A stretch of 64,000 bases of DNA, taken from IMG/VR virus record IMGVR_UViG_3300017917_004390, positions 1-64,000 of that record; one strand, given 5' to 3'. How positions within the stretch are numbered: position 1 is the first letter of the stretch; each line of letters starts with the position of its first letter. Below, one piece after another: positions 54,972-59,108 of this stretch. The stretch is from a virus. A model generated the notes under the pieces. It worked only from the letters and a program-made list of their open reading frames with translations. It did not search any database and was not told the DNA's origin. Made by a program: the position numbers and the translations under genes.

Positions 54972-56531
54972 ATGGTTATAAAAACTGAAACTAAATATTC
55001 TACCGTTTTAGACATATTAAAGACTTCAATTAAACAGGGAGTATCTTATAAAGATATTCTAAATGAAAGAGAACTAAGCCCTTCTTATATAAATGATTAT
55101 ATATATGATATTAAAAGAGGTAAAGTTAAATATTTAAATGAAGATGAAAAAAATGAAGTAGTTAAATTATTCGAGTCTCAAATTCCAATTCCAAAAACTT
55201 CTAATAATAAAAGTTTAGATTTAAATAATGAAGTTGATTTTGAAAAAAGAAGTAAATGCTGGCAAGAAAGAGATGAAGATGGTAAGATACTTCGTTATCA
55301 TTATGAAATTCATGTCCGTGATGAAAAACCACTTGAAGGTTATTTAACTAGACAAGAGTATGATACTATAGTTGAGAACTATCCATTCTTAACTCGGAAT
55401 ACTGTTTCACAAATGTTTCCAACTTTAACATTTGTGGATTTTAAAAGAATTATTAGATGTTTTAATATTACAAAAGATGTTGTTTTTTCACCTCACACAT
55501 TAGAAGAAAATCCACCAGAAAAAATTGCTGAATTTCATCTAAAAGCTAAAGCTAAATCAGCTTATAGAAAAATAACTGAAGAAAGAGGTGCTTTTAATGA
55601 GAAAGTTATTAAAGATTTAGTGAGAGAAAATCTTGATTTAAAAGATATTAGAACATTTATTGATGATACAGTAAATAAATATATTAAAACTGGTTCATCA
55701 GTTAAATTAACTAGAAAGCATCCAGAAATTAAAACTGGTGATATTGGTTATTTATTTTATAGTGATATTCACTATGGTAAAAAATATGAAAGCCCGATTT
55801 TTGGTAGGGGATGTGATAAAGATATATTACATGATAGAATGATTCAAATTGCTGATGAAACAATCAAATATGTAGAATTTAATCAAATTAAAAAATTAAA
55901 AAGTTTTTTTGCTGGTGATATTGTTGAAAGTATTTTAGAAGAAGGTATGCATCCCGGACATTTTAAAGAAATGGACCTAAGGGGTGATGAACAAATTATG
56001 TTTGCTATTGATTCACAAATCAATTTTATACAAAGAATACTTGATAATACAACAATACCTCTTGAATTTACATTTATTGGTGGTAATCACGATAGAATAG
56101 GTGATGATAGACAAAAAGATAAAGCTAGAACAGCATCTTTATTAATATTCAAATTAATTAAAAAACATTTTCAAGATAACGAAAGAGTTGTTATTAATGT
56201 AGGTACAAATACACTAACAAAAGATAATGAAAATGGCTTATGCGTATTAATGTTTCATGGTGATAATAGTCTAATTAAAAAACAACCACATGAATTAGTT
56301 AATCTACATGGGATTGGTACAACAGGATATCATTTAGTAGTGTCAGGCCATTTCCATAGTGGAGATATTAAACAAAAAACTGGTACTAATTATATGAGTA
56401 TATCTTTACCATCGGTTTGTAGTACAGATAATTTTGTATTAAATGAATTAGGTAACAATGACCTACCCGGATTTGTTATAGGAAAGAAACAAAACTCAGG
56501 TTTTAGTTTTAATTATAACATCCTTCATTAA
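54972..56531 (+). CDS. Calcineurin-like metallophosphoesterase with N-terminal extension
   Basis: SDIHYG, GDIVE, GNHDR, FHGD and GHFH motifs all present. Confidence 0.85.
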   Translation: MVIKTETKYSTVLDILKTSIKQGVSYKDILNERELSPSYINDYIYDIKRGKVKYLNEDEKNEVVKLFESQIPIPKTSNNKSLDLNNEVDFEKRSKCWQERDEDGKILRYHYEIHVRDEKPLEGYLTRQEYDTIVENYPFLTRNTVSQMFPTLTFVDFKRIIRCFNITKDVVFSPHTLEENPPEKIAEFHLKAKAKSAYRKITEERGAFNEKVIKDLVRENLDLKDIRTFIDDTVNKYIKTGSSVKLTRKHPEIKTGDIGYLFYSDIHYGKKYESPIFGRGCDKDILHDRMIQIADETIKYVEFNQIKKLKSFFAGDIVESILEEGMHPGHFKEMDLRGDEQIMFAIDSQINFIQRILDNTTIPLEFTFIGGNHDRIGDDRQKDKARTASLLIFKLIKKHFQDNERVVINVGTNTLTKDNENGLCVLMFHGDNSLIKKQPHELVNLHGIGTTGYHLVVSGHFHSGDIKQKTGTNYMSISLPSVCSTDNFVLNELGNNDLPGFVIGKKQNSGFSFNYNILH

Positions 56532-56534
56532 TAT

Positions 56535-56981
56535 ATGAATTATACACAAGAACAGAAAGACCTATTACTTGATAAATTATTTGATGGAGTTGTTTGTCTC
56601 AATATTTATCGTAGAATTGATATTATACATAAAAATAATAAAATTTCATGGTACAAACCAAAATATAATTTTTTTTGGTTAAATTACCATCAAATATGGC
56701 AATTTTTTGAAAACAAAAATGGTTCTAATTACCAAGAAATCAAAGACTTAACTGAGGGTATCCTGAAAGACCTTATAAAACAAAAGGAACTCACAACTGC
56801 ACCCGACCGGACCTTTTGGCATATAGACCTGAAAGACCTTATAAAACAAAAGGAACTCACAACAACCGAACCATTTGTACACTCCGCTCAACTCCTGAAA
56901 GACCTTATAAAACAAAAGGAACTCACAACGCTTCCTGAATTACTTTTTGATTTTCTTAACCTGAAATACCTTACAATATGA
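56535..56981 (+). CDS. Repeat-terminated small protein, paralog 1 (reads through 3 repeats and 3 spacers)
   Basis: MNYTQEQKDLLLDKLFDGV core; LKDLIKQKELT occurs three times, separated by spacer-encoded peptides. Confidence 0.8.
   Translation: MNYTQEQKDLLLDKLFDGVVCLNIYRRIDIIHKNNKISWYKPKYNFFWLNYHQIWQFFENKNGSNYQEIKDLTEGILKDLIKQKELTTAPDRTFWHIDLKDLIKQKELTTTEPFVHSAQLLKDLIKQKELTTLPELLFDFLNLKYLTI
56762..56976. CRISPR. CRISPR mini-array inside paralog 1: three identical 36-bp repeats, three 30-bp spacers and a truncated terminal repeat
   Basis: CCTGAAAGACCTTATAAAACAAAAGGAACTCACAAC at 56762, 56828 and 56894; unique spacers 56798-56827, 56864-56893, 56930-56959; partial repeat 56960-56976. Confidence 0.88.
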
Positions 56982-57265
56982 ATTATACCCAAGAACAGAA
57001 ACAATTATTACTCGATAATCTCTTTGATGGGGTTGTTTATTTTAATATTTTTGAAGATATCAATATTATTCATAGAAATCGTTTTTTTTCAATATATCAA
57101 CTAAAATATAACAAGTTTTGGTTAAGTCAACCTAACATTTGGAGATTTTTTGAAAATGAAAAAAGAAATAACTTCTATCAAATCATTGAATTAACACAAA
57201 ATATCCTGAAAGACCTTACAAAACAAAAAAATATTAGAACTGAAAACTTACGACTGAAAATTTAG
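56978..57265 (+). CDS. Repeat-terminated small protein, paralog 2
   Basis: Same core; degenerate repeat at 57205-57240 encodes LKDLTKQKNIR. Confidence 0.8.
   Translation: MNYTQEQKQLLLDNLFDGVVYFNIFEDINIIHRNRFFSIYQLKYNKFWLSQPNIWRFFENEKRNNFYQIIELTQNILKDLTKQKNIRTENLRLKI
57205..57240. repeat. Degenerate copy of the 36-bp CRISPR-like repeat
   Basis: CCTGAAAGACCTTACAAAACAAAAAAATATTAGAAC. Confidence 0.7.
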
Positions 57266-57295
57266 AACAATAGTTCTAATACTCATAATTAATAT

Positions 57296-57649
57296 ATGAC
57301 CTACACACAAGAACAAAAAGACCTCTTACTTGATAAACTCTTTGATGGAGTAATTTGTCTGGATATCTATAATAATATTGAAATTATACATAAAAATAGT
57401 AATATATCATATTATATATTTGGAAGTAATACTTTTAGATTAAGTTGGAGTAATATTTGGAAATTTTTTGAGAATGAAAAAAATGATAATCAACAAGAAA
57501 TTGAAGAATTAACATCTAATATCTTAATAGACCTTACAAAACGAGAGGGAATTAAAACACATCAACGCTATACTTCAATAGAATGGAGCGAATATCGACT
57601 TAAAAATCCGAATATTACAATTCAAGAAATAATTTTTCGTTATTTTTAA
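57296..57649 (+). CDS. Repeat-terminated small protein, paralog 3
   Basis: Same core; degenerate repeat at 57523-57558. Confidence 0.8.
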   Translation: MTYTQEQKDLLLDKLFDGVICLDIYNNIEIIHKNSNISYYIFGSNTFRLSWSNIWKFFENEKNDNQQEIEELTSNILIDLTKREGIKTHQRYTSIEWSEYRLKNPNITIQEIIFRYF

Positions 57650-57707
57650 GACCATGTTTTTCGAAAAGAAACGAATAATATCTATTACCCTAATAGACCT
57701 TACAAAA
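57523..57707. repeat. Degenerate repeat (57523-57558) and partial repeat (57689-57707)
   Basis: CTTAATAGACCTTACAAAACGAGAGGGAATTAAAAC; CCTAATAGACCTTACAAAA just before the next ATG. Confidence 0.6.
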
Positions 57708-57716
57708 TAATATTAT

Positions 57717-58040
57717 ATGAAATACACACAAGAACAAAAAGACCTACTACTTGACCGTCTCTTTGATGGAGTTGTTTTTTTTAATATATATGATACAATT
57801 CGTATTACACATATAAATAATAAAAAATCATGGTACAACCCAAAAACTAGTCTATTTTGGTTAAGCTATAGTAATATTTGGCATTTTTTTGAGAATGAAA
57901 ATATATATAATTTTCAAGAAATCAAATACTTAATTGAGCCTATCCTGAGAGACACTACAGAACGAAAGGAACTCACAACTAACGCTTGGATGGATATTGC
58001 TCGATGCTGTCTAAAAAGAAAGGAACTTACAAAACAATAA
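57717..58040 (+). CDS. Repeat-terminated small protein, paralog 4
   Basis: Same core; repeat encodes LRDTTERKELT. Confidence 0.8.
   Translation: MKYTQEQKDLLLDRLFDGVVFFNIYDTIRITHINNKKSWYNPKTSLFWLSYSNIWHFFENENIYNFQEIKYLIEPILRDTTERKELTTNAWMDIARCCLKRKELTKQ
57944..58037. CRISPR. Repeat-spacer-degenerate repeat unit in paralog 4
   Basis: CCTGAGAGACACTACAGAACGAAAGGAACTCACAAC (57944-57979), 30-bp spacer TAACGCTTGGATGGATATTGCTCGATGCTG (57980-58009), scrambled repeat remnant. Confidence 0.7.
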
Positions 58041-58043
58041 AAT

Positions 58044-58325
58044 ATGACTTACACACAAGAACAAAAAGAACTACTACTTGACAAACTCTTTGATGGAGTT
58101 GTTTGTATGGATATCTACTATGATATTGATATTATTCATAGAAGTTATGGGTTATCATACTACAACCCAAAAACTAATGAATTTGTGTTAAGCTATAATT
58201 ATATTTGGAAGTTTTTTGAGAATGAAAATAGAGATAATTACTATGAAATCGAAGAATTAATATCTAGTATCCTGAGAGACACTACAGAACGAAAGGAACT
58301 TATAACAAATTATTGGCGGGGCTGA
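58044..58325 (+). CDS. Repeat-terminated small protein, paralog 5
   Basis: Same core; the stop codon lies inside the spacer. Confidence 0.8.
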   Translation: MTYTQEQKELLLDKLFDGVVCMDIYYDIDIIHRSYGLSYYNPKTNEFVLSYNYIWKFFENENRDNYYEIEELISSILRDTTERKELITNYWRG

Positions 58326-58372
58326 AATCGAAGACCACTGAGAGACCTTACAAAACAAAAGGAACTCACAAC
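58271..58372. CRISPR. Repeat-spacer-repeat unit in and after paralog 5
   Basis: 36-bp repeats at 58271-58306 and 58337-58372 flank an exactly 30-bp spacer AAATTATTGGCGGGGCTGAAATCGAAGACC. Confidence 0.82.
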
Positions 58373-58415: not shown

Positions 58416-59108
58416 ATGTTTAAAACAGTTGAATTAGATAAATATGTAACGATTGATATTGAGTGCGTTACTGGATATAAAAATATATATGAATTAGAAA
58501 GAATTAAACCTAATTTGTATAAAATTTTTCAAAAAAGGTTTGAAAAAGATATAAATGAGGTTTTAAAAAATGTTGATTCGGTGCTTGAAGCTGAAGAAAA
58601 AGTATATAAAGAAAAAGCTGTTTTTATGGCTGAATTTTCAAAAATAATTTGTATTTGTGTTGCTGGTTATTTAAATGGGGAAATACAAACTAAATCATTT
58701 TTAGGTAATGAAAAAGATATTATTAGCAAATTTTATACTTTTATTGCTGGTAAACCTAGAATTATTTGTGGACATAACATAGTTAAATTTGATATACCTT
58801 TTATTAATAAAAGAGCTTATCTTTATAATATTCAGATACCTTCTATACTTCAGATTCATGATAAAAAACCTTGGGAATTATCTGCTAGTATAAGAGATAC
58901 ACAAACTTTATGGGCATTTGGTGGAATGAATAATATATCACTTGAACTTCTATGTGAATTTTTAGGTATTGAAACATCAAAAGATGATATTGATGGTTCC
59001 CAAGTCGATTCAATATACTATATATATAATGATATAGATAGAATTGTACAATATTGTACAAAAGACGTAACTTCAAATTTATTGGTAATCAAAAGATTAT
59101 GCAATTAG
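58416..59108 (+). CDS. DEDD 3'-5' exonuclease (PolB/DnaQ-like exonuclease domain)
   Basis: ExoI 'IDIEC', ExoII 'GHNIVKFDIPFI', ExoIII 'YCTKDV'. Confidence 0.9.
   Translation: MFKTVELDKYVTIDIECVTGYKNIYELERIKPNLYKIFQKRFEKDINEVLKNVDSVLEAEEKVYKEKAVFMAEFSKIICICVAGYLNGEIQTKSFLGNEKDIISKFYTFIAGKPRIICGHNIVKFDIPFINKRAYLYNIQIPSILQIHDKKPWELSASIRDTQTLWAFGGMNNISLELLCEFLGIETSKDDIDGSQVDSIYYIYNDIDRIVQYCTKDVTSNLLVIKRLCN

Follow-up and report, generated by a model that had tools for sequence, protein, structure and literature searches.

A small phage protein gene that ends in a CRISPR-like repeat, and the probably incidental translation of its spacers

CRISPR arrays are composed of near-identical direct repeats of 23-55 nt and unique spacers of nearly constant length. 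Typically, a non-coding AT-rich leader lies upstream of the first repeat, the repeats at the leader end are intact and the terminal repeat is degenerate. Here, we analyzed a viral locus in which an array of this appearance begins inside a protein-coding gene and continues its reading frame, which raises the question of whether captured spacers are used to diversify the protein or are read through incidentally. Both options had been put forward in an earlier note on this DNA, made from the letters alone, according to which the 66-bp repeat-spacer period keeps the frame and each new spacer rewrites the C-terminus.

A cluster of five paralogous genes with CRISPR-like repeats

The window, that is, the whole stretch of 64,000 nucleotides under analysis, covers the initial 64 kb of an IMG/VR virus record of 93,192 bp (IMGVR_UViG_3300017917_004390), which has a G+C content of 25.6% and is estimated to be ~30% complete. 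Its genes include those for a contractile tail sheath, a T4-type major head protein and a DnaB-like helicase as well as a split NrdA, and the closest relatives of its head protein, with 31-35% identity, belong to an uncultured 484-kb phage and to Flavobacterium phage immuto. The record thus represents a fragment of a large myovirus, possibly one with a Bacteroidota host.

Five tandem paralogous ORFs of 93-148 aa are located on the + strand at 56535-58325, between a metallophosphatase/exonuclease gene (54972-56531) and a gene for a PolB-type 3'-5' exonuclease (58416-59108). Similarity among the five units ends exactly where a 36-nt element ends. Details of the units and their repeats are shown in Table 1.

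Table 1. Genes, repeats and spacers of the paralog cluster (positions are those of the window)
Feature	Position	Strand	Description
Paralog 1, 148 aa	56535-56981	+	88-aa core and tail from three repeat-spacer units; from the ORF list and the five-paralog alignment
Repeat 1 of unit 1, 36 nt	56762-56797	+	Reference copy; encodes domain residues 77-88; phase 1 nt + 11 codons + 2 nt
Spacer 1, 30 nt, 16 G+C	56798-56827	+	No stop in the gene frame
Repeat 2	56828-56863	+	Identical to repeat 1 (36/36)
Spacer 2, 30 nt, 14 G+C	56864-56893	+	
Repeat 3	56894-56929	+	Identical to repeat 1 (36/36)
Spacer 3, 30 nt, 8 G+C, AT-rich	56930-56959	+	
Degenerate terminal repeat of unit 1	56960-56995	+	13 mismatches; 5' half kept; holds the ATG of paralog 2
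Paralog 2, 95 aa	56978-57265	+	Solitary degenerate repeat at 57205-57240
Paralog 3, 117 aa	57296-57649	+	Degenerate repeat at 57523-57558; partial repeat at 57689
Paralog 4, 107 aa	57717-58040	+	Repeat at 57944-57979; spacer at 57980-58009 (30 nt, 14 G+C); truncated repeat from 58010
Paralog 5, 93 aa	58044-58325	+	Repeat at 58271-58306; spacer at 58307-58336 (30 nt, 14 G+C), in which an in-frame TGA terminates the ORF
Last repeat of the cluster	58337-58372	+	Differs from the unit-1 repeat at 3 positions; not within an ORF

The basic description in the earlier note was borne out. Three 36-nt repeats and unique 30-nt spacers follow one another in frame with a 66-nt period at 56762-56981, the ORF of paralog 1 (56535-56981) is open through all three spacers and yields the peptides that had been quoted, and paralog 4 is open through its 30-nt spacer. 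Paralogs 2 and 5 terminate early, as described, with stops 7 and 5 codons past the repeat, respectively. The degenerate repeats that had been placed on the gene-distal side of units 1, 3 and 4 were seen in units 1 and 4, whereas the remnant of unit 3 at 57689 is 130 nt away from the repeat of that unit and not 30 nt.

Using a threshold of ≤13 mismatches, we identified 10 repeat-like sites within 56.7-58.4 kb and four, with 12-13 mismatches, elsewhere in the 93-kb record, whereas each shuffled genome contained 0-2. Outside the cluster, no additional true copy of the repeat was present in the 93 kb. Thus, the clustered sites are more than could be expected by chance. Four of the five window spacers are compositionally foreign: they have 14-16 G+C in 30 nt, and just 1.8% of the 30-mers of the genome reach 14. 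With identical repeats, foreign spacers of 30 nt (29-30 nt when the spacers of all relatives are pooled) and intact repeats next to the gene followed by decayed ones gene-distally, unit 5 being the exception, the locus behaves like a CRISPR array. This polarity also fits the idea of the earlier note that new spacers are inserted next to the gene. The locus departs from the general picture in its leader, the position of which is occupied, as had been noted, by a conserved ORF whose last 12 residues are encoded by the first repeat.

A regular period that is a multiple of three inside an ORF is also a property of protein tandem repeats that are mistaken for CRISPR, and an ordinary coding repeat of 12 conserved and 10 variable residues would account for the 22-codon period and for the openness of paralog 1 throughout. 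However, such a repeat is contradicted by the identity of the repeats at the nucleotide level (36/36) and by the unrelated, foreign spacers, as well as by the 29-nt spacers, out-of-frame repeats, repeats past stops and truncated terminal repeats that are found in the family (see below). We thus regard a non-CRISPR origin as extremely improbable.

The stop codon of paralog 1 overlaps the start codon of paralog 2 (ATGA at 56978-56981) inside the degenerate fourth repeat, an arrangement that suggests translational coupling between units.

The small protein and its junction with the repeat

Several lines of evidence indicate that the small gene encodes a real protein. The five paralogs share an 88-aa core with 59-66% identity in their alignment, a single frame out of six is free of stops in each of the five units (the remaining frames contain 2-19), and the dN/dS of the core among the window paralogs is 0.25-0.5. 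A profile search revealed 23 further proteins (52-77% identity) on three JGI contigs of 87, 67 and 47 kb, with 11, 11 and 1 close homologs per contig; among 1.8 billion representatives, 25 profile matches were obtained, some of them far more distant. The AlphaFold2 model of the core, which is based on a 42-sequence alignment, is confident (pLDDT 92.9) and predicts an alpha/beta domain in which a helix precedes a four-stranded sheet and two further helices. The final helix of the model (residues 66-81) extends into the repeat-encoded part, and the first repeat is thus predicted to encode folded residues. No family for the paralogs was found in Pfam or PHROGs, tblastn against GenBank phages detected no related sequences, and IMG/VR contained no close relatives. 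When the core model was compared with known structures, Foldseek against the PDB returned only matches with E>1 and the best Z of VIA-align against 48,161 chains was 4.7, which is at noise level.

The 5-aa tail and the stop that the spacer of unit 5 (58307-58336) encodes are identical in a homolog on the 67-kb contig (P0011), the core of which is ~60% identical. This sharing between contigs marks the unit 5 spacer as old and inherited, not recently captured, as judged from the sequences.

To examine how far the coupling of gene and repeat extends, we used two IMG/VR scans with family alignments, which led to the DNA of 14 additional phage records ranging from 5 to 365 kb. Arrays could be read in 11 of these, and together with the three of the window they amounted to 19 arrays with 40 spacers. 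Distant homologs of the 88-aa domain end in a 36-nt repeat of their own in at least 12 other phage records, several of them jumbo-sized, and a search of five of the 14 records revealed 9, 2, 2, 1 and 1 family units. In 19/19 arrays, the first repeat is 36 nt long, has the phase 1 nt + 11 codons + 2 nt and forms the last 12 codons of the domain; after it, additional repeats alternate with spacers of 29 or 30 nt. The resulting pattern of 12 conserved and 10 unrelated residues is repeated at the C-termini of distant homologs, for example, P0043, P0046, P0031 and P0027. In eight arrays (window units 1 and 4 and those of G002, G004, G005, L045, L046 and L047), the last repeat is decayed or truncated on the gene-distal side.

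The sequence of the repeat itself is strongly divergent between phages. When 16 family repeats were compared, they loosely shared GGAA close to the 5' end and ACA(A/C)C as the 3' end. The ACA codon at positions 32-34 of the repeat hardly varies (14/16 repeats); no consensus RNA fold was predicted for these 16 repeats. Among the window paralogs, the mean synonymous divergence (pS) is 0.26 in the repeat codons vs 0.47 in the core, approximately half, which points to selection on the nucleotide sequence of the repeat as well as on the protein. Common descent of the gene-repeat fusion explains why the phase is fixed, but not why it has persisted.

One of the arrays of G002 (L014:2608-2841) has four repeats that differ from one another at 4-7 positions, with all spacers still 30 nt long. 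It resembles an older array that is drifting apart, and is located beside a young one with identical repeats.

Reading frame and translation of the spacers

As the earlier note had argued, any 30-nt insertion after the first repeat necessarily rewrites the C-terminal tail. A repeat and a spacer together measure 36+30=66 nt, a multiple of three; with the first repeat in frame, this geometry by itself gives rise to the translated spacer tails of paralog 1, and, more generally, a stop-free spacer of 30 nt would be translated as a new C-terminal tail. The crucial question is whether spacer capture is itself the function, with CRISPR adaptation supplying ever-new C-terminal peptides. At first sight, several observations are in favor of such diversification: the first repeat is in frame and its phase is fixed in all 19 arrays, four of the five window spacers are open in the gene frame, and three distant homologs (P0027, P0031 and P0036) are long ORFs that run through whole arrays. 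On the other hand, the fixed phase is explained by the common descent mentioned above, and the remaining points can be compared with the behavior of all 40 spacers.

First, 31 of the spacers have a length of 30 nt and nine (22%) of 29 nt, which shows that insertion does not preserve the frame. Second, a depletion of stops in the gene frame relative to the other five frames, the comparison proposed in the earlier note, is not seen: 11/40 spacers contain a stop in the gene frame vs 71/200 in the other five (Fisher p=0.37), and the values for the gene-adjacent spacers are 5/19 and 32/95 (p=0.60), the power of the test being limited with 40 spacers and 19 first spacers. A shuffle null for stops (11.2/23) was rejected, all six frames falling below it, and the other five frames served as the control. 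Third, the gene frame is lost before the second repeat in 7/19 arrays by a stop, a 29-nt spacer or both; it reaches the second repeat in 12/19 arrays, somewhat more than the ~9.6 that are expected (0.775 x 0.65), and this excess would be in favor of diversification. Finally, distal spacers past the stop keep a perfect array structure: perfect repeats and spacers go on beyond the end of the ORF or in another frame in L045, L046, L056, L057 and one array of G002.

The close paralogs (n=28, that is, five from the window and 23 from the three JGI contigs) present a similar picture. About 44% of them stop inside the first 30 nt past the repeat (12/28 within nine codons), and none of the relatives reads through more than one spacer. 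Four more of the 28 have a ten-residue tail that ends in Pro or Thr and is followed by a stop; judging from the protein sequences, these tails would fit a 29-nt spacer after which the next repeat is read CC-TGA. In addition, the array-encoded tail in the full-length model of the 148-aa paralog 1 has no confident structure (pLDDT 30-43, with a shallow alignment).

Based on these results, the use of spacer capture as a protein-diversifying mechanism appears to be without support, and we consider it improbable. The alternative in the earlier note, incidental read-through, is favored by the frame test, and the best reading of the sequences is that translation of the spacers is a geometric by-product and not selected diversification. 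This case may also serve as a warning: an in-frame array is no evidence of protein diversification, and geometry alone explains what is seen in the window.

The most striking long ORF is P0027, a distant homolog of 760 aa with five fused units, in which a single ORF passes through eight spacer segments of 10 aa and the junction between the last repeat and the next unit is conserved five times. Such read-through would have a probability of roughly 0.01 under pure neutrality, unless it is due to how the hits were picked. The protein looks like an array that has been fossilized as coding sequence, and it hints that array translation might be tolerated or used in some lineages.

Comparison with known systems and possible role of the arrays

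No cas gene adjoins the arrays in the window's record or in five relatives, and no Cas1 was detected anywhere in the 93-kb record or in the five relatives, which include a complete 365-kb genome with terminal repeats. None of the large ORFs in the window's record and the relatives examined matched PADLOC or a defence family, and no ORF of G002, a record that is 81% complete, exceeds 861 aa. It should be noted that the window's record is only ~30% complete and that cas genes could be located in its missing part. Since Cas1 is absent from the phages searched, the arrays must depend on host proteins or on something unknown. In Rfam, the window repeat matched neither CRISPR-DR nor any other family. 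Within the 93 kb, we found no complementary copy with <12 mismatches that could represent an anti-repeat or tracrRNA, the best being one site with 12 mismatches, which is at chance level.

One way to do without Cas1 would be a system of the phage's own that has not been described, in which the small protein recognizes the 3' end of its own gene, in the form of DNA or RNA, and helps to insert or process the 30-nt units without canonical Cas proteins. The strict coupling of gene and first repeat across homologs of only 24-40% identity would agree with such autonomy, and so would the co-variation of the repeat sequence with the C-terminus of the protein and the lack of Cas1 in the complete 365-kb relative. 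The core has no clear fold match, and its weak top matches include small winged-helix-like DNA binders (with the best Z of 4.7, which is not significant). However, these matches are no better than noise, the 88-aa domain has no plausible catalytic site, and duplication of 36 nt with inserts of 29-30 nt is the known signature of the Cas1-Cas2 ruler. An autonomous phage system thus appears to be very improbable.

Close parallels were found among type VI-B and II-C systems. Type VI-B arrays have a 36-nt repeat, a 30-nt spacer and a 66-nt mature crRNA (10.1101/092577), and the window array has the same 36/30/66-nt geometry. In Flavobacterium columnare, the II-C and VI-B repeats are both 36 bp and share a leader-distal GTTGT (PMC8092290); the window repeat ends in ACAAC gene-distally, in the same orientation as this leader-distal ACAAC/GTTGT. 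The F. columnare VI-B array, which lacks cas1/cas2, gains its spacers via the II-C proteins (PMC8092290), and the window array, likewise without cas1/cas2 of its own, would need to be filled in trans. Moreover, the VI-B array is transcribed from the leader and the II-C array towards it (PMC8092290), and leader-side transcription as in VI-B matches the direction of the window gene.

There are also differences. VI-B direct repeats have complementary 5'-GUUG and CAAC-3' ends and a poly-U loop (10.1101/092577), whereas the window repeat in gene orientation reads CCUG...CAAC with an A-rich center; its other strand has GUUG and a U-rich center, but ends in CAGG. Both GTTG and CAAC are present in the repeats of two relatives, L051 and one copy of L045. 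In addition, no Cas13b, Cas9 or tracrRNA-like anti-repeat was found in the window's record, and the leader is coding sequence instead of a non-coding AT-rich region.

With regard to the leader, a W-x-F-F-E-N motif (56697-56720), which occupies the same place in all five units, is encoded by a run of T6-7 and a subsequent A-rich stretch, which are located upstream of the first repeat at a distance of ~45-65 nt. Leaders of F. columnare are reported to share poly(T)/poly(A) tracts ≤100 bp from the junction (PMC8092290). By analogy, this stretch may be of dual use, as protein-coding and as leader-like sequence.

Taken together, the locus is probably a Cas-less, gene-anchored viral CRISPR mini-array that resembles VI-B or II-C arrays and is served by host Cas proteins, with incidental read-through. 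The 36-nt duplication, the foreign inserts of 29-30 nt and the distal decay match an array that has been filled by a Cas1-Cas2 ruler. According to this model, a real protein gene would fill the leader position, and 29-30-nt spacers would be added next to it by a Cas1-Cas2 integrase from outside the phage genome. The integrase would most likely be that of the host acting in trans, like the II-C Cas1-Cas2 on the F. columnare VI-B array, and a Bacteroidota II-C system, as named in the earlier note, is plausible. The array would be co-transcribed with the gene and a host effector, either Cas13b-like (in the gene direction) or Cas9 II-C-like (on the other strand), would cut the transcript into guide RNAs. 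Such guides could be used against rival phages or host transcripts, or might simply occupy the host effector.

Viral mini-arrays and solitary repeats are already known, and among known systems they come closest to the present locus. Like the mini-arrays and single repeat units described before (PMC11656645, PMC10651486), the present arrays belong to a cas-less virus, contain one to few spacers, occur alongside solitary repeats and presumably rely on host Cas, and a spacer of one related phage matches a phage gene. The mini-arrays described carry the repeat of the host itself (PMC11656645), whereas we found no host array with the window repeat (zero exact matches of its 19-20-nt core in 185,579 GTDB species genomes); exact repeat and core scans of JGI metagenomes and IMG/VR gave nothing or chance matches in unrelated DNA. 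Furthermore, the first repeat of each array here belongs to a conserved protein gene, always in frame and at one codon phase; a genome contains 5-11 copies of the cassette, and the repeat varies between units. What sets the present arrays apart is thus that they are invariably anchored in frame in a protein gene that is conserved and multiplied. In the literature searched, we found no description of a conserved protein family in which the 3' end of the coding sequence is at the same time the first CRISPR repeat.

The many copies, together with the solitary repeats of units 2 and 3, make a decoy role, like that of RNA anti-CRISPRs, a serious rival. In this case, many highly expressed repeats would soak up the effector or adaptation complex of the host, and the spacers would be mere filler from the host integrase. 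Units 2 and 3 hold only solitary degenerate repeats, as the single repeat units of phages do (PMC10651486, PMC11656645), the copy number is high (5-11 per genome), no cas genes were found in the phages and no targets were found for the window's spacers. However, the Racrs that have been described are solitary repeats that are expressed as small non-coding RNAs and mimic the repeat of the host (PMC10651486), whereas the repeats here are coding, those of units 2 and 3 sitting inside ORFs, and differ between the units of one genome, and the scans above gave no host array with the window repeat. Working guides also fit better with arrays of up to five spacers and precise geometry, one spacer of which is complementary to a phage mRNA. 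For these reasons, the decoy reading is taken seriously, but considered unlikely.

A different view of the locus is that the small protein and the array form one undescribed functional unit, in which either spacer capture generates new C-terminal peptides on a conserved scaffold or the protein is a phage-borne CRISPR-associated factor with which a virus could build and use arrays in the absence of its own cas genes or a leader of host type. We regard this as distinctly doubtful. The retention of one codon phase across very divergent jumbo phages bears on how a gene can replace a leader and on how Cas1-Cas2 recognizes the gene-repeat junction in trans. A further question is whether cleavage of the transcript at the first repeat links the production of guide RNAs to the fate of the mRNA and the protein.

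Finally, we searched for targets of the spacers. The five spacers of the window had no target in their own 93-kb record, GenBank phages or PLSDB plasmids, and a 20-mer of spacer 1 had none in IMG/VR. A gapped match (28/30, E=0.1) between spacer 3 (56930-56959) and a Vibrio intergenic stretch was judged to be due to chance; the stretch lies upstream of a radical-SAM gene on ~0.9-Mb replicons. Among the relatives, the second spacer of G005 matches, at 27/30 positions and in antisense, the gene immediately upstream (L017:2405-2434 vs L017:3234-3263), and a gene-direction transcript of this spacer would be complementary to the mRNA of that gene. Although a single case, the match fits RNA-guided targeting of the homolog in a related phage, as for viral mini-arrays (PMC11656645). 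The matched gene (2343-2780 in L017) encodes 145 aa and adjoins the genes for SSB and a YqaJ-like exonuclease.
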